NCBI GenBank assembly: GCA_947451035.1
Contig: CANFXR010000003.1
Span: 221-64,220 of the forward strand
From: Burkholderiales bacterium
Lineage (GTDB): Bacteria; Pseudomonadota; Gammaproteobacteria; Burkholderiales; Burkholderiaceae_C
Direction of reading: 5' to 3'
DNA: 64,000 nt
Below are positions 6,633-50,193 of the stretch, piece by piece. The notes below the pieces were generated by a model. The model searched no databases and had not been told where the DNA came from. It saw only the letters and a program-made list of their open reading frames with translations. A program made the position numbers and the translations under genes. The number at the start of each line of letters is the position of its first letter. The stretch's first letter is position 1.

Positions 6633-7142
6633 ATGAACAACACATCCCTGACCCGCGCGCTGCGCCTGACCGCGCTGTGCCTGGCCACCCTGGCCGCCCC
6701 GGCGGCCTGGTCGCTCGAGGCCGGTGCGGCCGCGCCTGAACTGAGCCTGCCCGGCCTGAAGGACGCGGTGTCGCTGGCCCAGATGAAGGGCAAGGTCGTC
6801 TACGTCGACTTCTGGGCCTCGTGGTGCGGCCCGTGCAAGCAGTCGTTTCCGTTCATGAACGAGCTCAAGGCCAAGTACGGCGCGCAAGGCTTCGAGGTGC
6901 TGGCGGTCAATCTCGACGCCAAGCGCGGCGACGCCGACAAGTTCCTCGCCGAGGTGCCCGCGCAGTTCACGGTGGCCTTCGACACCAGCGGCGAGAGCGC
7001 CAAGCGCTTCGAGGTCAAGGGCATGCCGTCGTCGTACCTGGTCGGCCGCGACGGCAAGATTGCTTCGGCGCACAAGGGCTTTCGAGAGCAAGATCGCAAG
7101 GAACTCGAGTCGCGCATCGTCCAGGTGCTGGGCGCCCCGTGA
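6633..7142 (+). CDS. TlpA-like periplasmic thiol:disulfide oxidoreductase (thioredoxin fold)
   Basis: Signal peptide (MNNTSLTRALRLTALCLATLAAPAAWS). WCGPC active site within FWASWCGPC. Redoxin-type length. Confidence 0.85.
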   Translation: MNNTSLTRALRLTALCLATLAAPAAWSLEAGAAAPELSLPGLKDAVSLAQMKGKVVYVDFWASWCGPCKQSFPFMNELKAKYGAQGFEVLAVNLDAKRGDADKFLAEVPAQFTVAFDTSGESAKRFEVKGMPSSYLVGRDGKIASAHKGFREQDRKELESRIVQVLGAP

Positions 7143-8579: not shown

Positions 8580-9572
8580 ATGCGCGCCGCCGTGTCACCC
8601 CTTCGAAAGCGCGCCAAGGGTGCGCCGTCGAAGGCGCACGCCTATCGCTTCGAGTTCGATGCGATGTCCAGCGTGTGCGAGATCCGTCTCGACGACGCAC
8701 GCGGTGAAGGCGAGCCGGTGCTGGCGCTGGCGGCCGAACAGGCCATCAGCGAGGTGCGTCGCATCGAGGTGGCGTTTTCGCGCTACCGCGCCGACAGCAT
8801 CGTGTCGCGCATCAACGCGGCAGCGGGCGGGCCTGACGTGGTGGGGGTGGACGACGAGACCGCCTCGCTGCTGAACTTTGCGGCGCAGCTGCATGCGTTC
8901 AGCGACGGGCTGTTCGACATCACCTCCGGCGTGCTGCGCCGGGTCTGGGATTTCAAGGCGCAGCGCGTTCCTGATGAGGCGGCGCTGCAGCAGGTGCTGC
9001 CACTGATCGGCTGGTCGCAGGTGGAGTGGACGGGTCAGACGATCCGGCTGCCGCGGGCGGGCATGGAGGTCGACTTCGGCGGCTTCGGCAAGGAATACGC
9101 CGCCGACCGCGCGATGGCGGTGCTGCACGCCACCGGCCAGCGCCACGGCTACGTGAACCTGGGTGGCGACATCCGGGTGCTCGGGCCGCGTGCCGACGGC
9201 AGCGCGTGGCGCTTCGGCATCCAGCACCCGCGCCACGACGAGGGCACGATCGCCAGCGTCGAGTTGCGCGAGGGCGCGCTGGCCACCAGCGGCGACTACG
9301 AGCGTTACTTCGAGCAGGCGGGCCGGCGCTATTGCCACATCCTCGATCCACACACCGGCTGGCCGGTGACCCACTGGGCCAGCGTCAGTGTGACGGCACC
9401 GGCTTGCGTGGCGGCCGGCGCGCTCACCACGATCGCCATGCTCAAGGGCGCCTCGGCGCCCGAATTTCTCGCTGCCCAGGCCGCCACCGGCCTGGTCGTC
9501 GATACCGCGATGCGCAGCACGCGCATCGGCGCCGAGCACGACCGGCGCATCACCCAAGGAGAACAAGAATGA
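8580..9572 (+). CDS. apbE: FAD:protein FMN transferase (ApbE family)
   Basis: ApbE-type motifs are present (FSRYRADSIVSRIN, GLFDITSG, VDFGGFGKEYAADRA, NLGGDIRV, ATSGDYERYF, HILDP). No recognisable signal peptide or lipobox. Confidence 0.85.
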   Translation: MRAAVSPLRKRAKGAPSKAHAYRFEFDAMSSVCEIRLDDARGEGEPVLALAAEQAISEVRRIEVAFSRYRADSIVSRINAAAGGPDVVGVDDETASLLNFAAQLHAFSDGLFDITSGVLRRVWDFKAQRVPDEAALQQVLPLIGWSQVEWTGQTIRLPRAGMEVDFGGFGKEYAADRAMAVLHATGQRHGYVNLGGDIRVLGPRADGSAWRFGIQHPRHDEGTIASVELREGALATSGDYERYFEQAGRRYCHILDPHTGWPVTHWASVSVTAPACVAAGALTTIAMLKGASAPEFLAAQAATGLVVDTAMRSTRIGAEHDRRITQGEQE

Positions 9573-11543: not shown

Positions 11544-12440
11544 ATGAGCATCTCCGCCACCTCGAACTCCCATGAACGCGGCTTGCAGGTGGCCGTGGCC
11601 TTCTGCCTGCTCGATGTGTGCCTGACGGGGGGCGCGGCGTTTGCCTCGACCTCGCTCACCATCATGAGCGACCTGCTCAAGGAGTCGACTGACTTCCTGG
11701 CCGTGCTGGCGGCGTACCTCACGGTGCGCGCGGTGCGTCGCGCACCCGACGAGCGCTACGGCTACGGCATCGGCAAGCTCGAGAACCTGGTCAGCATGGC
11801 CATCGCCGTGGCGATGGTGGCGTGCGCGGGGTTCATCCTGATACAGGCGTCGCATCACCTGCGCGATCCGCAGCCCACCGAAGGCACGCTGCCCGGCATC
11901 GTGATCTTCTCGACCTATGCGGCGATCGGTTTCGGCATCTCGTTGCGCAACCGGCTCGAGCTGCGCAAGCGCGAGTCGGCGATCCTCGAATCACAGGCCC
12001 AGCTGTGGTTTTCCAAGGCGTGCTTCGACGCGCTGATGGCGCTCACGCTGATCACGCAGGTGGTGTGCCACGGGCAGCGCTGGAGCTTGTATCTGGATCC
12101 GATCGCGTCGCTGCTCGGCGTATTTTTCCTGCTGCACGCGGCCTGGGCGATCACCAGTTCATCGGTGGGTGACCTGCTCGATGCCAGCCTGTCCGAGCAC
12201 CTCCAGTTGCGCATCCTGCGCCAGCTGGTCGAGCGCTTCGACGACTACGACCGGCTGCACAAGATCCGCACCCGGCGCTCCGGGCCTCACGTGTACGTCG
12301 AAGTCTTTTTGCAGTTCGACCCCGCGCTGCTGATGCGCGAAGTGCAAAACCGCATCAACGCGATTGCCGCCCAGATCACCCGCGAGATTCCCGGCACGCA
12401 GGTGGTCATCGTGCCGTCGTGCGAGGCCCCTGCGGACTGA
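11544..12440 (+). CDS. Cation diffusion facilitator (CDF) family transporter
   Basis: Six-TM N-terminal part with CDF-like TM1/TM2 (ASTSLTIMSDLLKESTDF) and a cytoplasmic C-terminal domain (YVEVFLQFDP...). Confidence 0.75.
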   Translation: MSISATSNSHERGLQVAVAFCLLDVCLTGGAAFASTSLTIMSDLLKESTDFLAVLAAYLTVRAVRRAPDERYGYGIGKLENLVSMAIAVAMVACAGFILIQASHHLRDPQPTEGTLPGIVIFSTYAAIGFGISLRNRLELRKRESAILESQAQLWFSKACFDALMALTLITQVVCHGQRWSLYLDPIASLLGVFFLLHAAWAITSSSVGDLLDASLSEHLQLRILRQLVERFDDYDRLHKIRTRRSGPHVYVEVFLQFDPALLMREVQNRINAIAAQITREIPGTQVVIVPSCEAPAD

Positions 12441-37277: not shown

Positions 37278-38405
37278 TCAGGCGGCGGGGCGCGCCAGGA
37301 TGCGCAGGTCGTCGCCGACGCGCTCGATGCGGTGAAAGCGCAGCTCGGCCGCCTGCGACAGCTCGGCCAGCGGGCCGAAGGCGGCCATGTCGAGGCCCGG
37401 CCCCAGCAGCTTGGGCGCCAGGTAGATCAGGTATTCGTCGACCAGCCGCTCGCGCACGAGGGCGCCATTAAGTTGAGCGCCGGCTTCCACGTGCAGTTCG
37501 TTGATGCCGCGCTGCGCCAGATCGGCCAGCACCGCGGCCAGATCGACGCGGCCGTGGGCACCGGCGGCCTGCACCACTTCAATGCCATGCGCCGTGAAAG
37601 TGGCAAGCCGTTCGGCATCGGGCTGCGCCGCGTACACCAGCGCCGAGCCCGCGCTCTGGAACACGCGCGCACCCAGCGGTGCGGCGAGGTTCGAGTCGAG
37701 CACCACGCGCAGCGGTTGGCGCGCGGTGGCCACCAGCCGCACATCGAGCCGCGGGTCGTCATGGACCAGCGTGCCCACTCCGGTGAGCAGCGCGCCGGCG
37801 CGGCGGCGCCAGGCGTGGCCGTCGGTGCGCGCGGCCTCGCCGGTGATCCATTGGCTCGTGCCGTCGGGCAGCGCGGTGCGCCCGTCGAGCGAGGCCGCCA
37901 CCTTCAGCCGCACCCAGGGCCGCTGGCGCTGCATGCGCGAGAAAAAGCCGATGTTGAGTTCGCGCGCGGCGTCGGCTTCGATGCCGGCGATCACCTCGAT
38001 GCCCGCCGCGCGCAAACGCGCTGCGCCCTGGCCGGCCACCAGCGGGTTCGGGTCCTCGAGCGCCATCACCACGCGGCCCACGCCGGCTTGCGCCAGCGCA
38101 TCGCAGCACGGCGGCGTGCGGCCGTGGTGGGCGCAAGGCTCGAGCGTGACGATGACCGTGGCGCCGCGCACCGGATGACCGTGCGCGGCGGCATCGCGCA
38201 GCGCCATCACTTCAGCGTGTGGTCCGCCGGCTTGCTGCGTGTGGCCGCGCCCGAGCACGGTGCCGTCATCGGCCACGATCAGGCAGCCCACGCGCGGATT
38301 GGGTTCGCTCAGACCGATGGCCTGTTCGGCCAGCGCCAGTGCTTCGCGCATCCACCGGTGGTGCGGGTGCGCGGCGAGGTCGGCGGGGTTCGGTGGGGTG
38401 GTCAT
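37278..38405 (-). CDS. ribD: Bifunctional riboflavin biosynthesis deaminase/reductase RibD
   Basis: Deaminase zinc motif (HAEV...TLEPCAHHGRTPPC) followed by a reductase domain. Confidence 0.9.
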   Translation of the reverse strand: MTTPPNPADLAAHPHHRWMREALALAEQAIGLSEPNPRVGCLIVADDGTVLGRGHTQQAGGPHAEVMALRDAAAHGHPVRGATVIVTLEPCAHHGRTPPCCDALAQAGVGRVVMALEDPNPLVAGQGAARLRAAGIEVIAGIEADAARELNIGFFSRMQRQRPWVRLKVAASLDGRTALPDGTSQWITGEAARTDGHAWRRRAGALLTGVGTLVHDDPRLDVRLVATARQPLRVVLDSNLAAPLGARVFQSAGSALVYAAQPDAERLATFTAHGIEVVQAAGAHGRVDLAAVLADLAQRGINELHVEAGAQLNGALVRERLVDEYLIYLAPKLLGPGLDMAAFGPLAELSQAAELRFHRIERVGDDLRILARPAA

Positions 38406-38423
38406 CGGAGTCGGGCTCGCGAG

Positions 38424-39677
38424 TCAGGGCTGATGCTGAACCGTCGCCACGCCGGCGGGGGTGCCTGGCGCGGTTGAATCGATTGTCGCGGCAGCGGGCT
38501 GCGGGCAGGCCAGATCGCCGCGGATCACCAGAAAGTTCTGCTGCAGCAGCGCCCCATCGACCTGGCGGTAGACCGACGGGTGTTCGTCGTTGCGGTCGAT
38601 GGCGCCGCTGCTGTCGTTGTCGGCGACATAGCGGCACACCTTGCGCTGCGCGGGGGCGTTGCCGATCTCCCAGCCCAGCGGCACCACGATGCTCTGGCCC
38701 GACCAGCGCGGCGGGTCGCCGGCGGCGGCCACGACGCAGCGGTAGGCGGTGTGGCGCTCGCCGGTGTCTTGCCAGTCGGTCGCCGCGAGGCTGGCCGGCG
38801 TGGCCTCGAGGGCGACCGCTTCTCGGTGCACGCCATCGGACGCGCGGTAGACCACCGTCTTGCGCGCTTCGGCGTGGCACCACGGCGAAGCCGGCGACAG
38901 CATGCCCGCCAGCCCGACCGACAGCGCCAACGCGAGCGGCGTGTCGTTGGCGGCCAGCGCATCCGGCGGGTTGCTGCCTGAAAAGCGCACCACACCACTG
39001 AGCAGCAGCGCCTTGAACTCGGCGCAGTGCGTCAGGTGCTCGGCCCCGAGGTCTGCGCTGCGCACGTCGGCCGGCACATCGGTGCATTGCTCGACCACCC
39101 GCGCGCTGGCGTTGTCGACCACGAAGGCGACGGTGGCGCCGGGCGTGGGCTTGAAAGCGCTGCGCCGGTCGTCGACGATGTGCACGCCCGGCGGGATGGC
39201 ACTGGATCGGCCCGCCGCGCCGGCTTGCGCGCTGGCGACGAGCGTCAGCGCGCCCGAGAAGGCCGGGTCCTGATCGGTGAGCGCCGAGGCCAGCACCGTT
39301 TGCTGGGTCGAGCCGTCGCGGGCTCGCCAGACGACCGCGACCGTGGCCGATCTGAACGGCGCGGCCCCCGTGTCGCTCGCGTCAATCTGGCGGGTCAGCT
39401 CGAAGGTGGTGTTCAGGCGCAGCGCGGCGCTGTCTTGCACCGACCGGACATCGGATGCCGCAGGTGACCCGAACAGGCGGGCGGCTTCCAGATCTTCTTG
39501 CGCCAGCCGCACCGCCTCGGAGCGTTGCCGAGCGATGTCGGCGTGCGTCTCGAGATGCCGGTGCACATGGCCTGTGGCCGCCACGCCCACCGACAGCACG
39601 AGCAGCGAGAACAACGCTTCGAGCAGGCTGACGCCGGTCTGCTGCTCGCGCGGGGCACCGGTCGATGTGCGGCGCAT
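38424..39677 (-). CDS. PilV-like minor pilin with an unusually large C-terminal region (417 aa)
   Basis: Class-III signal-like G/VSLLEALFSLLVLSVG with Glu at +5. The start shares one base with the pilX-like stop (TGATG). The roughly 380 aa that follow have no motif I recognise. Confidence 0.6.
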   Translation of the reverse strand: MRRTSTGAPREQQTGVSLLEALFSLLVLSVGVAATGHVHRHLETHADIARQRSEAVRLAQEDLEAARLFGSPAASDVRSVQDSAALRLNTTFELTRQIDASDTGAAPFRSATVAVVWRARDGSTQQTVLASALTDQDPAFSGALTLVASAQAGAAGRSSAIPPGVHIVDDRRSAFKPTPGATVAFVVDNASARVVEQCTDVPADVRSADLGAEHLTHCAEFKALLLSGVVRFSGSNPPDALAANDTPLALALSVGLAGMLSPASPWCHAEARKTVVYRASDGVHREAVALEATPASLAATDWQDTGERHTAYRCVVAAAGDPPRWSGQSIVVPLGWEIGNAPAQRKVCRYVADNDSSGAIDRNDEHPSVYRQVDGALLQQNFLVIRGDLACPQPAAATIDSTAPGTPAGVATVQHQP

Positions 39678-40984
39678 CAGAAATCCTTCCAGCTGCCCGG
39701 CACGCGCGCGAAGCTGCCGGTGTGCAGTTGCAGCGCGCGCAGCACCGCCGCGTCGCGCTGCAACCGGGGCGCGCCGTTGCCGCGGTAATCCGACGCCGAG
39801 ATCACCGCGCCGTGGACGCCGGCGGGCGCGCCGGTGGGGCCGTCCCAGCGGATGTCGCCGGCGTACAGCACGCCGTGCAGCGTGACGTCGCCGCGCAGCG
39901 TCGCGGTGCCGCTCACCACGAGGATCACCGGACGTTCTGCCGAGCCCAGCGTGAGCGGCCCGTCGAGGGTGGCGTCGCCGGTGATGGAAACCATGCGGTT
40001 GCTGCCGGCGGCGTTGATGGCCGCGGCGATGGCCGCTCCACAGGCCAGCGTGCAATCGACCGCCTGCGCCGCCGGGTGGCGCGCCCAGCGGGTGCGATCG
40101 AGCCCGAAGTGCGAGGCGAACAGCCGCTCAGGCGCCAGCGCAGCCAGCGCCATGTCGTGCGTGGCCGCCGAGGCTTCGGCCGCACCACCGGCGGCGGTGC
40201 TCAGGCGCAGCGCCGTGCCGATCAGGCTGCCGCCGGCGCGCACCGTGAGTCCGCCGCTGGCGGTGTCGGTGTTGTGCACACCGAGCGCGCCGGCGGCATC
40301 GACCGTGTCGCGCACCGTGAGTGCCGCTTGCGGCAGCACCGACGCGCCCGGCAGCAGTCCGAGCAGCACCTGCAAACGCACCACCGCATCGGCACGACCG
40401 GCCACGCCGGGGCGACACGCGCCGGCCGCGTTCGAGCAGCCGGTGGCGATCAGGCGAACCAGCCCGGGGCGCGGCTCGGCGCTGAACTGCACGCTGAACG
40501 CGGGCTGCGGCGCAAGGTCGTCGCCGGTGGCCACCATCAGGCCCGGCCAGCCGTTCGACGGGCAGGCGCACGACCAGCCGTGGCCTGAGCGCACGCAGCC
40601 GGGTTGCAGCGCGAGTTCTTGCGCGCCGAGCTTCCACAGTCGTGGCGCGTGCAGCCCGGAGTCGGTGTCGACGCTCAGGTAGCGCTCGCGAAACGAGCTG
40701 CCGCTGGCGTCGGTGAGCGGCTCGCAGTGCTCATCGACCGGCCGTGGTGCGTTGAGCTGCGCGATGGCCCAGTCGATGCCGGCCTCGGCGGCTTCGAAGG
40801 CCTGCGTGGCGCGCTGCTGGTTGGCCGAGGAACGCTGCTCGAACAGCAGAGCGCGGTTGGCGTACGTGGCGCTCAGCAGCATCGCCATCAAAAGCAGCAG
40901 GCTCACCGCGAGCGTGGCGGCGCCGCGCTGCTGGCGCAGGTGACGTGGCCGGTGGCTCACGCGGGGGCGGGGGGCGGTTGGCAT
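39677..40984 (-). CDS. PilX-N-domain pilus assembly protein (435 aa)
   Basis: N-terminal QQRGAATLAVSLLLLMAMLLSA...Q..A..AAEAG pattern typical of PilX_N. Confidence 0.6.
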   Translation of the reverse strand: MPTAPRPRVSHRPRHLRQQRGAATLAVSLLLLMAMLLSATYANRALLFEQRSSANQQRATQAFEAAEAGIDWAIAQLNAPRPVDEHCEPLTDASGSSFRERYLSVDTDSGLHAPRLWKLGAQELALQPGCVRSGHGWSCACPSNGWPGLMVATGDDLAPQPAFSVQFSAEPRPGLVRLIATGCSNAAGACRPGVAGRADAVVRLQVLLGLLPGASVLPQAALTVRDTVDAAGALGVHNTDTASGGLTVRAGGSLIGTALRLSTAAGGAAEASAATHDMALAALAPERLFASHFGLDRTRWARHPAAQAVDCTLACGAAIAAAINAAGSNRMVSITGDATLDGPLTLGSAERPVILVVSGTATLRGDVTLHGVLYAGDIRWDGPTGAPAGVHGAVISASDYRGNGAPRLQRDAAVLRALQLHTGSFARVPGSWKDF

Positions 40985-40994
40985 CGGCAGGGCC

Positions 40995-41684
40995 TCACGC
41001 CGGGCAGCGCCCGGTGATCTCGTCGTTGCGCAGCCGCACCGCCGTGCGCGCGGTGCGCACCGTTCGGGCGTCGGTGGCGCTCTGGGCGGTGATCGTCACC
41101 ACCACGCTGCGCAGCGTCTGGCGCGGCGGGCAGCGGGCGTCACCGGCGGCGCACGGTGCGCTGCACAACGCGCCCAGGGCTAGCGTGTCTTCGCGCGGGG
41201 CGAACTCCAGGGCGGTGACTTTCATCGTGTTCACATCGGTCATCGACTGCCAGCTCGCGCCGCCCACGCGCATCTCGAGCGCACCGCTGCGCAGCCGAAA
41301 GCCGAACTGCTCGTGGCTGTCGACCTGCTGGTTTTCGGTGCTGTCGAGCGAGTAGCGCAGCGTGACCGTGGCGGCGGTGGATTCGATCGCGGCGTAGGGG
41401 TTGCTGGCGACGCTGGCGGCTGCCGAATCGCGCATCCACACGCCCGCGCCGGCATCGCCCCAGTGGCCGGCGCGGCGCAGGTCGCGGGCGATCAGCTCGC
41501 TGGCGCTGCGCAGATCGTGCATGAGGCGGTTGTGTTCGATGAGCGCGCGGTTGTCGCGCAGCTGGATCAGCAGCACCGTGATGCCGCACGCCACCAGCAG
41601 CAAGCCCAGCGCCGTGCCGATCAGCAGTTCGACCAGCGACAAGCCGCGCTGGCGGCGATCACGTGGCGCGATGCGGTGGCGCAT
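40995..41684 (-). CDS. PilW-like minor pilin
   Basis: Prepilin-type N-terminus RGLSLVELLIGTALGLLLV with Glu at +5. 229 aa. Confidence 0.7.
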   Translation of the reverse strand: MRHRIAPRDRRQRGLSLVELLIGTALGLLLVACGITVLLIQLRDNRALIEHNRLMHDLRSASELIARDLRRAGHWGDAGAGVWMRDSAAASVASNPYAAIESTAATVTLRYSLDSTENQQVDSHEQFGFRLRSGALEMRVGGASWQSMTDVNTMKVTALEFAPREDTLALGALCSAPCAAGDARCPPRQTLRSVVVTITAQSATDARTVRTARTAVRLRNDEITGRCPA

Positions 41685-41685
41685 G

Positions 41686-42156
41686 TCACTGGCCCCAGCA
41701 GCGGCGGTTGAGCGCGGCCGTGTTGGCGGTGGCGTCGGTCTCTCCCGAGGCGTAGGTGAGGTTCAGGCCCTCGACCGTGAGCCGCAGATACCGGCAGGCG
41801 CTGTCATTGCGCTGCGCGCCGGTGGCCGCAGCACGCACCGAATAGCCGGTGGACGATGCGGCTTCCAGGGTGAGCTCGTAATGGCCTGAAGGCGACACGC
41901 CCGCCACACCGAGTTGCGCCAGATCGCCGTAGGCCTCGTGGTTGGCGCGATAGCGCTCTTGCTGCGTTTGCAGGTTCATCAGCGCGACCAGCGCATCCGA
42001 GCGCCGAACGCTGGCCAGCGTGCTGCTGAAAGCCGGGTAGGCGATCGACGAAAGGATGCCCACGATGGCCAGGCCCAACGCCAGTTCGGGCAGGCTGAAG
42101 CCCGTCGCCCGTGCGCGGCGGCGTGGTGCGGGCGGGTGGGGTCGGGACAGCGTCAT
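41686..42156 (-). CDS. Type IV pilin-like protein (PilE-type)
   Basis: TGFSLPELALGLAIVGILSSIAYPAF N-terminus. A C-terminal Cys pair (C...C-W-G-Q) is present. Confidence 0.7.
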   Translation of the reverse strand: MTLSRPHPPAPRRRARATGFSLPELALGLAIVGILSSIAYPAFSSTLASVRRSDALVALMNLQTQQERYRANHEAYGDLAQLGVAGVSPSGHYELTLEAASSTGYSVRAAATGAQRNDSACRYLRLTVEGLNLTYASGETDATANTAALNRRCWGQ

Positions 42157-42193
42157 GGTCGGCTCCTTGGGTCAGGGGTTGAGGAATCGAAAC

Positions 42194-42748
42194 TCAGCAC
42201 AGCGGGTAGCCGGCCACCGCCGGACCGGGTATGGCCGGCGTGCAGCTGCGCAAGCGCCCGAGCACATTGACCACGTGGTGGATGGCCCGGCCGCTGGCGC
42301 CCGAGACCTTCAAGGTGCCCGCCGGCGTGGCCGTGCCGTGCAGCGGGTCGAACACCATCGAGCTCACGTTGGACTGCACGCCGATGCGCGCCGAGGCGCT
42401 GAGCGTCACGGTCTTGAGCGCCACCGCGTCGGCGGTGCACATGGCGGAGGCGGACTGGCCATCGCACTGGCACTGGTTGCGCGCGCCCGTGTGCAGCACG
42501 TAGCAACTGCCGCCGGCGTTGTCGAAAAAGCTCAGCCGCAAGGTCTCGTTGCGCAGCACCGCTTCGCTGCGCAGCCACTGCACGTCGCTGGCGAGTTGCG
42601 TGGCCGCGCCGGTCAGCCGTTGACGTTCGAGCGTGGCGGCCAAGTCGGGCGCGGCGCTGCACACCAGGATCGCCATGAGGGCCAGCGTGATGGCCGATTC
42701 GATCAGCGTGAAGCCGCGTTGTGCGGCGGGTGTGTGCAGCGAGTCCAT
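42194..42748 (-). CDS. GspH/FimT-family minor pilin
   Basis: RGFTLIESAITLALMAILV N-terminus and the LASDVQWLRSEA pattern typical of FimT/GspH. ATG 42748. Confidence 0.7.
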   Translation of the reverse strand: MDSLHTPAAQRGFTLIESAITLALMAILVCSAAPDLAATLERQRLTGAATQLASDVQWLRSEAVLRNETLRLSFFDNAGGSCYVLHTGARNQCQCDGQSASAMCTADAVALKTVTLSASARIGVQSNVSSMVFDPLHGTATPAGTLKVSGASGRAIHHVVNVLGRLRSCTPAIPGPAVAGYPLC

Positions 42749-42842
42749 GGGGCTCACTGTAGAAATCACGCCCGCTTTTTTCGACCCCACGAGGTGGGTC
42801 TTCGCCCTGCCGCGAGGGGTGCCCCCGAACGGGGGTGTCGGC

Positions 42843-42945
42843 TCAGATGTTGCGGATCAGCGGGTGGAAAGCGTCGACGTCTGCGAGGCTGAGGCACATC
42901 GAGACAAAGCGCATGCGGCCCAGTTGTCTGGCACCTCGCTTGGAT
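42843..42945 (-). pseudogene. Relic copy of the 3' end of nrdR (about 33 codons plus stop)
   Basis: nt 42843-42913 match nt 48449-48519 (the intact nrdR 3' end) at 59/71 positions in my hand alignment. The minus-strand translation ..SKRGARQLGRMRFVSMCLSLADVDAFHPLIRNI* parallels the NrdR C-terminus ..[32 protein letters not shown]. No upstream nrdR coding sequence accompanies it. Confidence 0.75.
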
Positions 42946-42949
42946 CGGT

Positions 42950-43873
42950 TCAGCCCCGCATCGGCATGGACGTCTTGCATTTTGGATAGCCCTCGCAGCC
43001 CCAGAACGGCGATCCCCCCGTTCGTGGACGGCGCTCAACCATCTTGACGCCGCAGTTGACGCAAGTCGGTCGCCAGTAGTCGCCTTCAAGGGCCACGCAG
43101 AGAAGTGCTTGTTGCTGCTCGTCGCTTCGTGTGGCGATGAGCGCGAGCAGCGCCTTCACGTCGAGCAGATTGATCGCGTTGTCTCTGGCAAACGCGATCG
43201 CATCGTCGGTGAAGGTCGAGGTCGTGGCGAATTGGCCCCGCCCTATGCCTTTGGCTGCCATGACGCCACGCAGTTCGCGCACCTTGTCGACGCCGACCCG
43301 CTTGCCCTGCCAATGCTTGCATTGAACGATGCTCACGGGCATGACCTGGTTGGTGCGGGAGTACAGCCAGATATCGATCCCCTCATCGGCACCGTGTGAC
43401 TGCGATTTGGTTTCGAAGCCGGCCTGCGAGAACAAGGCCTCCACCAACGCCTCGAAGCGACGCCACTCGATCTGCTCAAAGACAGCGCTCCCCCACGATT
43501 GAGGCGTGGGTTCGGGGCGGCCACTTCGCGGCTTTGTGGCGGCCGACATTTCTTCAAGGCGCGGTTCCACGCTGTGCGCCGGTGCTGGCGCCATCGGTGG
43601 CGCCCGCTGGGGTTTCGGTGGTGTCTCACTTGCCCAGGCTGGAGTTGCCGCTGGCTTGGTTGGTGGGGCTCTGTTTTGCCACCACAGCAGGGCGCAACCG
43701 ATCACGAAAAAGAACCATCCGAATGGCGCCATGGGCTTGAGGGCCGCGCCGATCGGCGACTTGGCAAGAAACCACGGGACAAGCCCCAGCAGCAGTCCCA
43801 ATCCAATCAACTTCGGGGCAAGCTCTTTTCGCTTGCGCTGTTTGCTGGCATCAGGTCTTCCGCGTCGTGCCAT
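42950..43873 (-). CDS. Membrane-anchored Mrr-cat restriction-endonuclease-fold protein with a C-terminal topoisomerase-type C4 zinc finger
   Basis: Two N-terminal TM helices and a Pro-rich linker. An Mrr-like nuclease core (..GADEGIDIWLY..VSIVQCKHW..) follows. The C-terminus reads CVNCGVKMVER..FWGCEGYPKCK. Confidence 0.7.
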   Translation of the reverse strand: MARRGRPDASKQRKRKELAPKLIGLGLLLGLVPWFLAKSPIGAALKPMAPFGWFFFVIGCALLWWQNRAPPTKPAATPAWASETPPKPQRAPPMAPAPAHSVEPRLEEMSAATKPRSGRPEPTPQSWGSAVFEQIEWRRFEALVEALFSQAGFETKSQSHGADEGIDIWLYSRTNQVMPVSIVQCKHWQGKRVGVDKVRELRGVMAAKGIGRGQFATTSTFTDDAIAFARDNAINLLDVKALLALIATRSDEQQQALLCVALEGDYWRPTCVNCGVKMVERRPRTGGSPFWGCEGYPKCKTSMPMRG

Positions 43874-43992
43874 GGTTCAGCCTTGAAGTCATCGGCCATC
43901 CGACTGGCAGCCCACTTTCTCAGAATCGTGTGTCGCGGTGATGAATGGCCCACTGAGCGCGAAGCGCGCAGGCCCGGTCAAACGGTTGTCAG

Positions 43993-45825
43993 TCAGCGCG
44001 CCGAAAACAGCCCCGGCAGCCCCGTCGCGAGCACCGGAATCCAGGCGATGAGCATGGTGCCGATGAAGATCGCCAGCATGGCGGGCAGCACCGAGGCGGC
44101 CACGTAGCGGATCGATTTTCCGAACATGGCCGAGGCGAAGTACAGGTTCATGCCTGCCGGCGGGCACAGGAAACCCACTTCCATCGCCGCCAGAAAGATG
44201 ATTCCGAAGTGCACCGGGTCGATGCCGTAGCTCAGCGCCAGCGGCAGCAGCAACGGCACCAGCACCACAAGCGCCGCAAAGATCTCCATCAGCGCGGCCG
44301 CGGCGAACAAAAACACGCACAGCGCGAGCATGAAGGCGTAGCGGTTCGGGATGACGCTGCGCACCCATTCCACCGCCAGATCGGGAATGCCGGCATCAAC
44401 GAGGAAGTTGGTCAGTGCCAGCGCCATCCCGAGGATGAGCATCACGCCGCCGATCAGCCGCACGCATTCGGCCAGGCACTGCGCGAGCAGCCGGCGGTCG
44501 AGTTCGCGGTGCGCCACGGCCTGCGTGATGACGGCATAGGCGGCAGTCAGCGCGGCGCTCTCAGTCGGCGTGGCGAGACCTCCCACCAGCGAGCCGATGG
44601 CCACCAGCGGGGCGAGCATTTCCCACTTGGCAGCCCAGGCCGCCTTCGCCACATTCAGGCGCTGCGGTGCAGCCGGCGCGGCAGTCGCGGGCGTCGGGCC
44701 ACGTCGCAGGTAGCCGCCGATCACCAGCAGGCACACCACCATCAAGACGGCCGGCACCAGACCCGCGAGCAGCATGTCCTTGATGGGCACGCGCGCAATG
44801 ACGGCGTACATGATCAAGGGCACCGAGGGCGCGAGCAGCACGCCCAGCGCGCTTGCGCTGGTGACCAGCCCGATGCCGCGCTGTTCGGGGTAACCGGACT
44901 CGCGCAGCAGCGGCAGCAGCAAGCCGCCCAGCGCCAGGATGGTGACGCCGCTGCCGCCGGTGACGGCGGTGAACGCCGAGCACAAGACGGCCGAGGCCAG
45001 CACCGTGCCGCGCACGCCGCCGCCAAACAGCGCGAGGAACAGCGCGCCCAGCCGCTGCGCCGCGCCGGTGCGCGCGAAGATCAGGCCGGCCAGCGTGAAC
45101 AGCGGCAACGCCGGCAGCGACGGGTTGACGGTGATCTGGTAGTGCGACAGCGCGATGGACGCCATCGGCAAGCCGTCGCTCCAGAACAAGGCCAGTGCCA
45201 GGCCGCCCAGCACCGCGAAGATGGGCGCGCCGCTCAGCAAGACGCACAGCAGCCACAGCAAACCGGGCCACAGCGGCACCGAGCCGCCGTCGATGAGCGC
45301 CGCTGCGGCGCCACCGGCCAGCGGCAAGGCGAGCGCGCACAGCGCCGTCCACGGCCAGGTGTCAGCGCAACGCGCGCCCAGCCTCACGCCCAGCCAAACA
45401 AAGCCCACGGGCATGGCGGCTTGCACCCACCACACCGGTACGCCATAGGCGAGCACCTGCGCCGCCTGCATTTCGCTGGCCACGAAGCGCCAGCTGGCAA
45501 ACGCCAGCAATCCGCAGATGACCGAGGCGCTGCCCTGGGCGAAGGCCCGCACGGCCAACTGAAAGCGTGCGTCGCCCCAGCGGCTGACGCCGCTGCCCAG
45601 CGTGCTCAGGTGGCCGTGCCGTTCAGCCGCCACCGCGCCGAACATCGCCAGCACCAGCCCGAGGTGCTGAACCAGCACCGGCGCGTTCGCGATGCCGCGA
45701 CCGTGCAGCGGCCGCAGGGCCATTTCGATCAGCGGGATCAGCGTCATCAGCGCGAGCGCTGCCGATGCCAGCGGCTCGTCGCCGCGCGCCCACGCCTGCA
45801 GCCTGACCCTCAGCGAGCCGGCCAA
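43993..45825 (-). CDS. TRAP transporter fused small/large permease (DctQ-DctM type)
   Basis: 610 aa and highly hydrophobic. A DctQ-like N-terminal part is followed by DctM-like helices. The ORF begins with TTG at 45825, right after the dctP-like stop, so the start is uncertain. Confidence 0.8.
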   Translation of the reverse strand: MAGSLRVRLQAWARGDEPLASAALALMTLIPLIEMALRPLHGRGIANAPVLVQHLGLVLAMFGAVAAERHGHLSTLGSGVSRWGDARFQLAVRAFAQGSASVICGLLAFASWRFVASEMQAAQVLAYGVPVWWVQAAMPVGFVWLGVRLGARCADTWPWTALCALALPLAGGAAAALIDGGSVPLWPGLLWLLCVLLSGAPIFAVLGGLALALFWSDGLPMASIALSHYQITVNPSLPALPLFTLAGLIFARTGAAQRLGALFLALFGGGVRGTVLASAVLCSAFTAVTGGSGVTILALGGLLLPLLRESGYPEQRGIGLVTSASALGVLLAPSVPLIMYAVIARVPIKDMLLAGLVPAVLMVVCLLVIGGYLRRGPTPATAAPAAPQRLNVAKAAWAAKWEMLAPLVAIGSLVGGLATPTESAALTAAYAVITQAVAHRELDRRLLAQCLAECVRLIGGVMLILGMALALTNFLVDAGIPDLAVEWVRSVIPNRYAFMLALCVFLFAAAALMEIFAALVVLVPLLLPLALSYGIDPVHFGIIFLAAMEVGFLCPPAGMNLYFASAMFGKSIRYVAASVLPAMLAIFIGTMLIAWIPVLATGLPGLFSAR

Positions 45826-45827
45826 AC

Positions 45828-46847
45828 CTATTGGCCCCGCGCCGCGCGATAGGCCTTGAGATGGGCGAACACCTCGTCGAAGGTGTCGGCCGGGACCATG
45901 GTGCCGCGGATGCGTGGATACAGCCGCTCGGCCAGTTCGTTCCAGGCGCGCATCTGCTCGGGCGTCGGCCGGTTCACGACCAGACCGCGTTTTTTCATCG
46001 CGGCCACGGCCTCATCGACTTCTTGCCGGGCCTGATTGCGCATGCGGATGCTGGCTTGCTCGCCGCCGGTGCGCAGCGCTTGCTGGCCGGCCGGCGACAT
46101 CTCGTCCCAGGCCTTCTTGGTGACCACGAGCGCGCCGACGATCGGTGCCCAGTTGAGCTCGAGCATGTTGGGCGCCGTGTTGTAGATCTGGCTGGCCAGC
46201 GCGAAGTAGGGCGTGGACGGCACCACGTTGATCATCCCGGTCTGCAACGACGGCAGGATGTCGGCGGTTTCCAGCGGCACCGGTGTGTAGCCCAGGCTCT
46301 TCATGATCGACTGCTGCTCGGGCTCGGACCCCCAGGCGAAGAACTTCATGCGCTTGTAGTCGTCGGGCAGGAAAGCCGGCTCCTTCGAGAAGAAGCGCAC
46401 CCAGCCGGCATCCCCCCAGCCGATGACCACGAAGCCACGCTCCAGAAAGCGCTTTTCGAGGCCCGGGCGCATCTTTTCGCGCACATGGTCTACCTCGTCC
46501 CAGTTGCGAAACAGCAGCGGCAGGTTTTGCAACGCGGAGATCGACGGCTCGATCTCGCGCAAGCCCACCACCGACATCAGCGCGCCTTGCAACTGACCGA
46601 TGCGCATGCGCCGCGCCAGTTCGGCTTCGCCGCCCTGGCTGCCGTCGGTGAACACAGCGAAGCGCGCGTTGCCGCCCTGGGCCGCGCGCCAGGTTTCTCC
46701 CAGCTCGAGCAGTTGCTGGTGGTACGGCGAGTTCTTGGGCACCAGCGAGCCAAAGCGCAGCTGCGTGGTCTGGGCCATGGCGGCCATGGGCAAGGCGAGC
46801 GAGAGGCAGCCCAGCCACGCGCTGTAGCGCCGGCGTTTGATGTTCAT
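45828..46847 (-). CDS. TRAP transporter periplasmic solute-binding protein (DctP/TatP type)
   Basis: Signal peptide (..LPMAAMA/QT). DctP-family length and pattern. Confidence 0.8.
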   Translation of the reverse strand: MNIKRRRYSAWLGCLSLALPMAAMAQTTQLRFGSLVPKNSPYHQQLLELGETWRAAQGGNARFAVFTDGSQGGEAELARRMRIGQLQGALMSVVGLREIEPSISALQNLPLLFRNWDEVDHVREKMRPGLEKRFLERGFVVIGWGDAGWVRFFSKEPAFLPDDYKRMKFFAWGSEPEQQSIMKSLGYTPVPLETADILPSLQTGMINVVPSTPYFALASQIYNTAPNMLELNWAPIVGALVVTKKAWDEMSPAGQQALRTGGEQASIRMRNQARQEVDEAVAAMKKRGLVVNRPTPEQMRAWNELAERLYPRIRGTMVPADTFDEVFAHLKAYRAARGQ

Positions 46848-46884
46848 GGGTGGAGTGGTCCGGGGCAGGGGAATGTGTGGGGGA

Positions 46885-47775
46885 TCAGAAGCGGTCGTCG
46901 GCCGTGTCGAGCAACCACTGCGCGCGCTCGCGCATCACTTCGTTGCCGAGGTCGCGGTGCGCCGCGCTGATGGCCAGGGCCTGGTGCAAGAGCGCCTCGA
47001 AGGCCGCGCGGTCGCCCGCCGGTGCGGCCAGCATTTCGGCCCGGGCCACGCACACGCCGGCGTTGCGGCCGTGAGCGGCTTGCATCGCCTGATCGAAATA
47101 GAGCGCGGCCTGGCGCGGGCTGCCGCCGGGCCGTGCGGCTTCAAAGCTGCCCATCAACGAGGCCAGGTCGCCATTGCCGTAGGCGGGGTTGCTCATCCAG
47201 GCCAGGCTCGCGAGCCGCACCGCCAGTGGCAGGTCGGCGACCACGTCCGGCTGGTCCTTGGACAGCGAGATGTAAGCCCCCCACGAGGCCGCCGCCCAGT
47301 AGGCCACGCCCACCTGATCCGCGGGCAGGCGCAGGGTCGGGCTGCCGGCTGCCGGGCTGCTGTTGAGCGCCTTCAACAAGGCGGGGTTGTTCAGCTCGAG
47401 GGCCGCCATGGCGTGGCGATGCGCGCGCCAGTAAAGCCGCGCCGCGCGCGCTCGCAGTCGCTGTGCGGCCTTGGCGTCGTGGGCTTCAGTGCGGTCGGCC
47501 TCGAACGCGACGAAGGCGTAGGCGTATTGCGTGAACCCGCCGGCCACCGATTCGGCCAGTGGCAGGTGGTCGGGTGTCTTGCGCAGCACCGACTCGGACA
47601 GCTTCAGATAGAAAGCGCTGGCCTCGCGCGCCAGCACGATGTCGTCTTCTTCGGCCTGGCTCTGACCGGCGAGTTCGTTGGCGACGTTGCGGACCAGCAT
47701 CGTGCGCGGTGAGCAGGCCGTCAGCAGCGCGACCAGCAACGACAGGCTCAGGAGGCGGGCGCAAAAAAATGTCAA
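46885..47775 (-). CDS. TRAP-T-associated TPR-like lipoprotein (TatT family)
   Basis: Lipobox LLTAC after a TTG start at 47775. Helical-repeat protein encoded immediately upstream of the dctP/QM-like genes (TPAT arrangement). Confidence 0.6.
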   Translation of the reverse strand: MTFFCARLLSLSLLVALLTACSPRTMLVRNVANELAGQSQAEEDDIVLAREASAFYLKLSESVLRKTPDHLPLAESVAGGFTQYAYAFVAFEADRTEAHDAKAAQRLRARAARLYWRAHRHAMAALELNNPALLKALNSSPAAGSPTLRLPADQVGVAYWAAASWGAYISLSKDQPDVVADLPLAVRLASLAWMSNPAYGNGDLASLMGSFEAARPGGSPRQAALYFDQAMQAAHGRNAGVCVARAEMLAAPAGDRAAFEALLHQALAISAAHRDLGNEVMRERAQWLLDTADDRF

Positions 47776-47986
47776 AGCTTCACCGTCGCTTTCCGTGGTC
47801 GATCTCTTGGGGGGACGATGCCGGGCCGCGCAGCCTGTGCATGGTGGGGCCAGGGGAGCGCTTGGCGTGGCACGTGTTCCGACGCTGGAGCAGGGCTGCG
47901 GCCACACCGCAGTCCGTTCGGCCCGACGCTACCGTGTGATCGTGAATCTGCGGTGACACGAACGGGCGGCTGCCCGCGCCGGCCGA

Positions 47987-48217
47987 TCAAGAAGTCAGCG
48001 GCACCACGGCGTAGTTGCAAACCGCGTCACAACGGGCGTGATGCTCGATCGTCAGACCGATGCGCTGGCCGGGTCTCAGGGCTGCAAACTCGCCCCCGCT
48101 CGTGCTGCGGGTGATGGTCCAGTCGCGGTGGTCGTCGCCAGACAGATAGGCCATGCCCAAGCCGGGCAACACATCTTCGACGGTGGCTTTGACGGTTGAC
48201 GTGGCGAGATATTGCAT
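47987..48217 (-). CDS. Hypothetical small protein (76 aa)
   Basis: ATG preceded by GAGG at a 7-nt spacing. No recognisable motif. Confidence 0.45.
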   Translation of the reverse strand: MQYLATSTVKATVEDVLPGLGMAYLSGDDHRDWTITRSTSGGEFAALRPGQRIGLTIEHHARCDAVCNYAVVPLTS

Positions 48218-48448
48218 GGCGGAACCTCAGTCGGATCGGACGGCCGCCACGTGTGAAAACATGGTTGCCATTGACCCACATACTAGTACAAACCCTAATC
48301 ATTCGGGTCGCTGGTGCGCGCTCACGGCCATTGGGTTGATCTCAATCCCCGCCACAGTCTGACGAGACCGGCAAGGCCGTGCCTTGATGCAGCGCAAAGG
48401 CCCTCTTGCGAACGAGGCGCCACCCGCCAGGTCCGGGCCGGCGACAGT

Positions 48449-48892
48449 TCAGATGTCGCGGATCAGCTGGCGGAAGGCGTCGACGTCTTCGAAGCTGCGG
48501 TAGACCGACGCAAAGCGCACATAGGCCACCTTGTCGATGCGCTTGAGTTCGCGCATGACCAGCTCGCCCAGGCGGGTCGACGGCACTTCGCGTGCGCCGC
48601 TGCCGAGCAGCTTTTCCTGGATGCGATCGATCGCGGCATCGATCTGCTCGACGCTGACCGGGCGCTTGCGCAGCGCCAGCGTCATCGACGCGCGGATCTT
48701 CGACATGTCGAAATCAGCGCGCGTGCCGTCTTTCTTGATGACCGACGGCAGCGCGATTTCGGCGCGCTCGTAGGTGGTGAAGCGCTTGTCGCAACTCTGG
48801 CAGCGTCGGCGCCGCCGCACCACGTCGCCTTCGTCCGACTCGCGCGTCTCGACGACTTGCGTATCGGTGTGGCTGCAGTAGGGGCAACGCAT
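48449..48892 (-). CDS. nrdR: Transcriptional repressor NrdR
   Basis: [17 protein letters not shown]...[12 protein letters not shown] zinc ribbon plus an ATP-cone. Confidence 0.95.
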
Positions 48893-48942: not shown

Positions 48943-50193
48943 TCAGCGGTAGACCGGAAAGTCGCGCGTCAGCGCGGCGACCTTGGCGCGCACCGCGGCC
49001 AGGTTGGCCTCGTCGTGCGGGTTGTCGAGCACATCGGCGATCAGGTGCGCGGTGAGGCGCGTTTGCTCTTCCATGAATCCGCGCGTGGTGAGCGCCGGCG
49101 TGCCCAGACGGATGCCGCTGGTGACCATCGGCTTTTGCGGATCGTTCGGGATGCCGTTCTTGTTGCACGTCATGTGCGCCAGGCCGAGCGCGGCTTCGGC
49201 TTCCTTGCCGGTGAGATTCTTCGGGCGCAGATCGACCAGCATCACGTGGCTTTCGGTGCGCCCGCTCACGATGCGCAGGCCGCGCGAGATCAGTGTTTCA
49301 GCCAGCACCACGGCGTTCCTCAGCACTTGCTGCTGGTAGGTCTTGAACTCGGGCGCCAGCGCTTCCTTGAAGGCCACGGCCTTGGCGGCGATCACGTGCA
49401 TCAGCGGGCCGCCCTGAATGCCGGGAAACACCGCGCTGTTGATCTTCTTGGCGATGTCTTCCTTGTTCGTGAGGATGATGCCGCCGCGCGGGCCGCGCAG
49501 GCTCTTGTGGGTGGTGGAGGTCACCACGTCGGCGTGCGGCACCGGGTTCGGGTAGACGCCGGCGGCGATCAGCCCCGAGTAGTGCGCCATGTCGACCATG
49601 AAGTACGCGCCGATGTCGCGCGCCACCTTGGCGAAGCGCTCGAAGTCGATGCGCAGCGAGTAGGCCGACGCGCCGGCGATGATCAGCTTGGGCTTGTGTT
49701 CGTGCGCCAGCCGCTCCATCGCTTCGTAGTCGATCTCTTCTTTCGCATCCAGGCCGTAGCTGACGACCTTGAACCACTTGCCGCTCATGTTGAGCGGCAT
49801 GCCGTGGGTCAGGTGGCCGCCTTCGGCCAGGCTCATGCCCATGATGGTGTCGCCCGGCTGCAGCAGCGCAAAGAACACCGCCTGATTGGCCTGCGATCCG
49901 GAATTGGCCTGCACGTTGGCAAAGTCCGCGCCGTACAGCGCCTTGAGGCGGTCGATGGCGAGCTGCTCGGCCACATCGACGAACTCGCAGCCACCGTAAT
50001 AACGCTTTCCGGGATAGCCCTCGGCGTACTTGTTGGTGAGCTGGCTGCCCTGGGCGGCCATGACCGCCGGCGAGGTGTAGTTCTCGGAGGCGATCAGCTC
50101 GATGTGCTCCTCCTGACGGCGGTTCTCGTTCTGGATGACCGTCCAGAGTTCCGGGTCGATGAGGGCGAGTGTGGATTGGGTGCGGTCAAACAT
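48943..50193 (-). CDS. glyA: Serine hydroxymethyltransferase
   Basis: ATG 50193. Motifs [11 protein letters not shown] and [12 protein letters not shown] (PLP lysine). Confidence 0.95.

Follow-up and report, generated by a model that had tools for sequence, protein, structure and literature searches.

A 71-nt segment between the gene for an Mrr-like nuclease and the minor pilin gene fimT (42843-42913 of the window, by which we mean the whole 64,000-nt stretch of Burkholderiales DNA analysed here) is a non-functional copy of the 3' end of nrdR, a real scar that marks an insertion of DNA between nrdR and a cluster of pilus genes. We put at about 0.7 the probability that the scar belongs to a decayed direct repeat left by one old single-crossover insertion at nrdR, the insert having been remodelled later. 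All genes discussed here lie on the minus strand, and the features of the locus are as follows.

37284-38384, minus strand: ribD, located by tblastn
42194..42790, minus strand: fimT, GspH/FimT-like minor pilin gene (Pfam GspH and N_methyl), the ancestral downstream neighbour of nrdR by synteny in 23 relatives
42813..42842, minus strand: native post-stop sequence GCCGACACCCCCGTTCGGGGGCACCCCTCG with the hairpin CCCCCGTTCGGGGG (plus strand 42822-42835), the same in all clade loci read
42843..42913, minus strand: nrdR 3'-end relic, the right-hand direct repeat, with its stop codon TGA at 42843-42845; non-coding and decaying
42914..42945, minus strand: stretch over which the relic may weakly continue as far as the Mrr stop codon, not significant alone in the window
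42843..43992, no strand assigned: presence/absence segment of 1150 nt comprising the DctQM-Mrr spacer, the Mrr gene and the relic, with CTGA at both ends
42950..43873, minus strand: gene for an Mrr-like nuclease with a C-terminal zinc ribbon (Pfam Mrr_cat), the last gene of the insert
43993..47907, minus strand: TatT-DctP-DctQM TRAP operon (Pfam TAtT, DctP, DctQ and DctM)
43993-45825, minus strand: fused DctQM (PF04290 and PF06808)
45828-46847, minus strand: DctP (PF03480)
46885-47907, minus strand: TatT (PF16811)
47987..48217, minus strand: orf76, small protein without a family, part of the insert
48437..48448, minus strand: ACTGTCGCCGGC, the 12 nt next to the nrdR stop, which are what remains, in degenerate form, of the post-stop repeat's left copy
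48449..48892, minus strand: intact nrdR (Pfam Zn_ribbon_NrdR and ATP-cone), its last 71 nt (48449-48519) being the left-hand repeat
48943-50187, minus strand: glyA

The preliminary description of this DNA had claimed a gapless match of 59 identities in 71 positions between 42843-42913 and the last 71 nt of nrdR, and the count was borne out. When the 71-mer was scanned over both strands of the window, 59 identities were found at 48449 and the runner-up place gave 36. Shuffling 500 times with dinucleotides preserved gave best matches of 36.4 on average (sd 1.2) and 43 at most, which rules out chance similarity and secures the significance on which the earlier claim had been made to depend. The BLASTN comparison with nrdR genes that had been proposed was carried out with 42780-42960 and matched the nrdR 3' ends of 27 other loci, with E values reaching ~1e-16 in a small database of loci. 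Translated in the nrdR frame, the relic reads ..RFVSMCLSLADVDAFHPLIRNI*. As had also been noted, no body of nrdR lies upstream of it, and the Mrr_cat gene (Pfam E 4e-28) occupies that place.

Could the relic instead be a functional small gene? Gene callers do annotate a 45-codon ORF over it in public genomes (L001, which is the window's own locus, 6743-6880; L117 12871-13008; L128 10872-11009). The encoded peptide is poorly conserved, however, with 13 of 24 residues identical between the window and L005 by hand count, and the L117 relic carries a 1-nt indel; both fit neutral decay. The segment is moreover missing from five close relatives. With 59 of 71 identities set against a shuffle maximum of 43, the reading of the relic as a chance or convergent similarity in composition, or as a functional small gene, is effectively refuted, and the 45-codon ORF called in public MAGs should be annotated as an nrdR pseudogene fragment, not as a gene. 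Orthologous relics were found in L005, L117, L119, L120 and L128. The derived changes that they have in common, counted by eye in the relics of the window, L005, L117 and L119, are Val to Met/Ile, Tyr to Cys, Arg to Leu, Glu to Ala, Arg to His and Asp to Asn. These common substitutions point to one founding event, older than the split of these lineages.

How far does the repeat extend, and which of its copies stands in the ancestral position? After the intact nrdR of L117, L119 and L128, the TGA is followed by GCCGACGCCGCCCTCGGGCGG, which resembles the GCCGACACCCCCGTTCGGGGG that follows the TGA of the relic. Local alignment of the two borders relative to the stop codon covers -79 to +19 in L119 and -38 to +22 in L117. 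The repeat reaches 12-22 nt beyond the stop codon in L117, L119 and L005, and, read by eye, the longest stretch of exact identity between the copies, ACATCTGAGCCGAC, lies across the stop. The weaker similarity that had been described at 42914-42945, tested on its own within the window, did not reach significance (p~0.16 local, p~0.31 anchored); what stands of that claim is the longer span of the L119 repeat. A direct repeat of the gene's 3' end, one of the marks of a genomic island, is accordingly found at both borders of the insert. At the left border of the window only the 12-nt remnant is left after the nrdR stop, and the deletion of EEP-CHAD described below begins beyond it.

In many relatives with an empty site, the nrdR stop is followed by the hairpin CCCCCGnnCGGGGG, often 6-7 nt on. 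In the window, the hairpin CCCCCGTTCGGGGG stands 7 nt after the stop of the relic, and none was found after the stop of the intact nrdR. Since the relic stop precedes the native hairpin at the usual spacing, the relic and its downstream flank represent the ancestral nrdR end in place. The hairpin motif was found nowhere else in the window, which speaks against a REP-like dispersed repeat, and the absence of both a notable Rfam match and a terminator call at the relic and hairpin likewise disposes of a known RNA or terminator. The hairpin CCCCCGnnCGGGGG recurs after the nrdR stop in several genera (nrdR-fimT spacers of L007-L033) and has no T-run. All clade loci have the same 30 nt after the relic or DctQM stop, with flanks that differ by ~10%. 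This conserved hairpin may act in regulation or processing, as an element that precedes the pilin operon.

A search with the FimT-like protein, taking one genome per species, returned 31 loci of the Rhizobacter/Piscinibacter/Ideonella/Caldimonas group. Of these, 23 have fimT as the next gene after glyA-nrdR, at 70-226 nt from the nrdR stop, and a second nrdR 3' end was found in none of the 23. These loci are true empty sites with a single copy of the repeat, a further mark of an island. The preliminary description had asked for such a comparison and had named a relic in relatives without the segment as evidence against its view; none of the empty sites has one. It had also treated nrdR to ribD as a neighbouring interval, and this does not hold in the present family. 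Five minor-pilin genes (window 37284-42790: a FimT/GspH-like, a ComP_DUS-like and a PpdB/PilV-like protein, a PilX_N protein and a 417-aa protein) stand between nrdR and ribD-ribE-ribBA-ribH-nusB, so that the common nrdR-ribD adjacency is interrupted. Between nrdR and fimT, two Ideonella MAGs have independent inserts of their own, 1.3 kb in L015 (679-1970) and 1.6 kb in L021 (8375-10000), in which no second nrdR copy was found and the ORFs had no Pfam match; the nrdR-fimT spacer may be an insertion hotspot.

The intact 3' end of nrdR does not look foreign. Over the last 102 nt of the gene, the divergence between the clade and its outgroups is 0.114 vs 0.116 among the outgroups themselves, and the corresponding values for the 5' part are 0.168 and 0.155. 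Both the relic and the intact nrdR genes of the clade encode Ala139 (GCN), where 24 of the 24 outgroup nrdR genes compared encode Glu. The shared Ala139 and the lack of excess divergence at the 3' end argue that both copies derive from the lineage's own nrdR. The sequences thus give no sign of the foreign replacement 3' end that the island model supposes and that had been proposed for this locus.

The gene content claimed for the insert, namely an Mrr-like nuclease, a TatT-type TRAP transporter and a 76-aa ORF, is supported by Pfam, with orf76 remaining without a family after searches of Pfam, NCBIfam and PADLOC. TatT, a DctP-type protein and DctQ/DctM are encoded in one operon, the composition of a TatT-associated (TPAT) TRAP transporter, and NCBIfam returned TRAP_S1 and dctM. 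The Mrr-like protein contains an Mrr_cat domain of the PD-(D/E)xK type (PF04471, E 4.3e-28, residues 133-246), by which it is a predicted nuclease of the Mrr family of type IV-like restriction endonucleases; the PADLOC matches to type IV REase (mREase_IV) and PDC-S02 are at the domain level. Homologues of orf76 were found in the clade loci and also ahead of a TRAP module in the unrelated context of L114, which suggests that orf76 may belong functionally to the transporter. The TatT-DctP-DctQM module itself occurs at 76-87% identity in a Burkholderiaceae MAG (L114), in L115 and in Roseateles (L116). These three contexts all differ from one another and from the present one, and none has nrdR beside the module, which excludes them as donors with the TRAP module natively at nrdR. 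Mrr homologues of ~70% identity lie at other loci in Rhizobacter. One of them, in Rhizobacter sp. Root404 (L124 2390-8840, 70% identity), shares its patch of DNA with an AAA_15/AAA_21 ATPase and an integrase of phage type, which indicates that this nuclease family travels on integrase-bearing islands elsewhere. A search for an Mrr cassette with an nrdR arm at other places gave nothing: no nrdR-like DNA was found near the Mrr homologues of 80 metagenome loci (<=64% full-length identity, up to 78% on partial matches), and the two Rhizobacter contexts are unrelated to nrdR.

The insert is compositionally mosaic. Measured against the likely true frames of the window (mean 0.84 +/- 0.05), GC3 is 0.72 for Mrr, ~2.4 sd below the mean, and 0.75 for orf76, and it is host-like at 0.85-0.90 for the TRAP genes as for nrdR, glyA and fimT. 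Since the TRAP genes are host-like, there is no positive mark of a mobile element. No gene for an integrase, a transposase or any other recombinase was found in the window's 5.5 kb or in the examined parts of the clade inserts, so an integrase next to the border, the usual companion of an island, is missing here. Every ORF of the window insert, like every additional one in the long form described below, had either a Pfam assignment or no match, and no recombinase is among them. Gaps within the 5.5 kb measure at most 231 nt and leave no room for a hidden integrase. The earlier statement that no integrase remains therefore extends to the examined inserts of the clade, and an integrase-driven island is a deduction rather than a finding. 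Among the papers searched, none links nrdR to an attachment site.

Close relatives of the window, with FimT 84-91% and DctQM 92-97% identical, carry the insert in different versions. The long form (L005, L117, L119, L120 and L128) reads nrdR-EEP-CHAD-orf85-(GGDEF-EAL, opposite strand)-TatT-DctP-DctQM-Mrr-relic-fimT and spans 9.6 kb from nrdR to fimT in L005. The short form, in the window and L118, is without EEP-CHAD and GGDEF-EAL. The TRAP-only form (L125, L126 and L006, the last being the same as L127) reads nrdR-TatT-DctP-DctQM-fimT; this 4.1-kb form is without orf76, Mrr and the relic, and the partial contigs L003 and L004 are also without Mrr. Window positions 48437..48000 align to L005 2299..2752, which hold the CHAD 3' end and the orf76 region. 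The existence of the ~9.6-kb form in close relatives indicates that the window's 5.5 kb is a reduced derivative and not an arriving unit. Of the preliminary proposal for this segment, then, DNA inserted at nrdR and bracketed by repeats is retained, and its arrival as the present unit is contradicted by the 9.6-kb and 4.1-kb forms.

The relic co-occurs with Mrr and not with the TRAP operon. It is present in all six Mrr-bearing loci that reach fimT (window, L005, L117, L119, L120 and L128) and absent from all five Mrr-less loci (L003, L004, L006/L127, L125 and L126). In the latter, the DctQM stop runs in register into GCCGACACCCCC (GCCGACACCCCCGTTCGGGGG), which in the window comes after the stop of the relic. 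Did the Mrr-less loci lose the segment, or had they never gained it? In a neighbour-joining tree of the DctQM side, the window and L118 group with the Mrr-less L003 and L004 (supports 44-65%) and L006 is basal (44%); on the fimT side the Mrr-bearing loci come together (49%). With supports of only 13-65% at the relevant nodes, these local trees did not settle the polarity. Divergence of Mrr between the window and L005 is about equal to that of the neighbouring genes, which suggests that Mrr is old in both lineages. We lean towards deletion of Mrr and the relic as the origin of the Mrr-less loci. In L005 (~8890-8905) and L117 (~11950-11965) the core recurs as a third, partial copy, CTGA-CCGACACCTCC, ~25 nt ahead of the Mrr start (shuffling p~0.01-0.02, uncorrected). 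The window, in which the DctQM-Mrr spacer has been rearranged, does not have this copy. L006 has a hairpin-like copy after the nrdR stop although it has no relic.

What course of events would produce such a locus? We infer a single-crossover topology. In the ancestor of a small clade of uncultured Burkholderiales, a circular DNA carrying a copy of the stretch would have recombined once with the chromosome in a Campbell-type insertion, giving a repeat of ~100 bp made up of ~80 nt of the nrdR 3' end, the stop codon and ~20 nt of the hairpin region. The left copy would have stayed on the body of nrdR and been kept by selection, and the right copy, which remained where the nrdR end had been ancestrally, in front of the native hairpin and fimT, would have decayed. 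The insert was probably ~10 kb long with Mrr as its last gene. In later remodelling the window would have lost EEP-CHAD and GGDEF-EAL, and in other lineages 1150 nt with Mrr and the relic would have been deleted between two CTGA stop-codon microhomologies. One such insertion explains the repeat at both borders, the intact gene and the relic in its native register at once. As to the enzyme, a site-specific recombinase since lost is a serious possibility at somewhat below even odds, and by analogy it would fit the attachment-site-like layout and the e14/icd precedent. Homologous recombination through the ~100-bp homology, which would fit the same-lineage copies, the host-like cargo and the lack of an integrase, we hold possible too, at odds clearly under even.

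Several observations count against a single insertion. No recombinase gene was found in the examined inserts and the TRAP GC3 is host-like; a deletion that ends exactly at two stop codons is somewhat coincidental; and the uneven GC3 (Mrr 0.72, orf76 0.75, TRAP 0.85-0.90) suits a mosaic more than it suits one arrival. In addition, the DctQM-side tree places L003 and L004, which are Mrr-less, with the Mrr-bearing window, so that one deletion would need to have spread by recombination or to have recurred. There are rival histories. One is an island of the strict e14/icd type, a foreign element that brought its own replacement nrdR 3' end and integrated inside nrdR by its own integrase, so that the last ~100 nt of the intact gene would be island DNA, the relic the displaced host end and the 5.5 kb one unit. 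The direct repeat of the gene 3' end, the empty sites in relatives, the register of the relic with the host hairpin beside a degenerate post-stop copy at the intact gene, the precedent of icd/icdC with e14 (PMC13626634) and the Root404 Mrr homologue in its integrase-bearing patch would all agree with this. Yet the examined clade inserts have no integrase, the intact 3' end is as diverged as expected (0.114 vs 0.116), the clade-specific Ala codon in both copies places the donor end in the same lineage, the content differs among close relatives with heterogeneous GC3, and the TRAP module is an ordinary chromosomal module elsewhere; we consider such an island unlikely. Equally unlikely in our view is a history with no mobile element, in which the repeat would be a by-product of homology-facilitated illegitimate recombination with sibling-strain DNA, or of a duplication-then-deletion translocation within the genome. 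It accounts for the origin of both repeat copies from the same lineage's nrdR, for mostly host-like cargo (TRAP GC3 0.85-0.90, with TRAP homologues at 76-87% at other loci of related genomes), for the lack of a recombinase gene and for junctions that rest on 4-nt microhomology. However, at least two illegitimate events would have had to hit one spot, and attachment sites classically have just this layout, a repeat straddling a stop codon and a hairpin; the independent same-spacer insertions in L015 and L021 also hint at a preferred site.

For the relic itself, the main rival is a two-step accretion, which we regard as improbable. The TRAP block would have come first, its DctQM stop joined at CTGA to the post-nrdR-stop sequence, with the L006 type as the older one; a small Mrr cassette with an nrdR-like arm would then have integrated at the core CTGA|GCCGAC, making the relic cassette-borne and not a displaced host end. 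The strict co-occurrence of Mrr and relic (6 loci vs 5), the same CTGA junction in all Mrr-less loci, the atypical GC3 of Mrr, the basal place of L006 in the DctQM tree at a weak 44% support, the third partial core copy in L005 and L117 (p~0.01-0.02 uncorrected) and the hairpin-like copy after the nrdR stop of the relic-less L006 speak for such a history. Against these stand two separate duplications, of the hairpin and then of the nrdR end, where one event suffices; the clade's own Ala codon in the relic; the lack of nrdR-like DNA near ~80 metagenome Mrr homologue loci; a divergence of Mrr between the window and L005 that is like its neighbours' and so not recent; and the absence of the third core copy from the window. 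A bolder reading, and a distinctly long shot, is that the nrdR stop and hairpin (core approximately CTGA followed by GCCGACACCCCC) form a reusable attachment site for integrase-less cassettes served by a recombinase encoded elsewhere in the genome, the 1.15-kb piece with Mrr and relic being such a cassette. On this reading, the core copies at the bounds, the identical presence/absence junction in siblings and the tandem TRAP block would be its traces.

Genomic islands at the 3' ends of tRNA and tmRNA genes are well known, as is the tandem accretion of integrative elements at one att site. Like these, the nrdR locus has direct repeats of the target 3' end flanking its cargo, strain-variable content and possibly several core copies; unlike them, its target is a protein-coding regulator gene, no integrase was found in it, and most of its cargo looks like ordinary chromosomal DNA. 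Homology-facilitated illegitimate recombination and Campbell integration by RecA are usually inferred from experiments in naturally transformable species. One homologous anchor and the CTGA microhomology would give the same repeat with no dedicated recombinase, a route that would also fit the same-lineage origin of both nrdR 3'-end copies. Phage 21, like e14, occupies icd in E. coli. When e14 is integrated there, the gene stays intact and a copy of its C-terminal fragment, icdC, lies at the far border (PMC13626634). The topology at nrdR is the same, with the intact gene, then the insert, then the 3' fragment. The differences are that e14 keeps its integrase and excises, whereas the nrdR insert lacks an integrase in every version examined; that the replacement icd end differs from icdC at few codons, whereas the nrdR relic has decayed to 83% identity with many non-conservative changes; and that the nrdR repeat extends past the stop codon and the intact nrdR end is not foreign-looking. 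The nrdR scar is a fresh example of this known and ordinary type of footprint.

With the single-crossover insertion as the preferred reading, the relic provides a dated and well-bracketed example of the rebuilding of a gene neighbourhood, that of nrdR, the insert, the minor-pilin cluster and ribD, in which a short pseudo-copy of a gene end can outlast all traces of the machinery behind it. A new question would open only if the locus turned out to be an attachment site that can be used repeatedly. As for the Mrr-like nuclease, sibling lineages differ in having or lacking it, which makes it an accessory gene. Among the other genes of the clade inserts, DctP of L120 (4524-5695, on a metagenome scaffold) is split into two pieces that overlap (residues 1-159 and 142-339); either the gene is broken or the assembly is at fault. 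The GGDEF-EAL gene is split by a frameshift in L005 (2834-4644). Its protein is ~98% identical among L005, L117 and L119, with neighbouring genes at ~85-96%, which suggests recent exchange or strong constraint.
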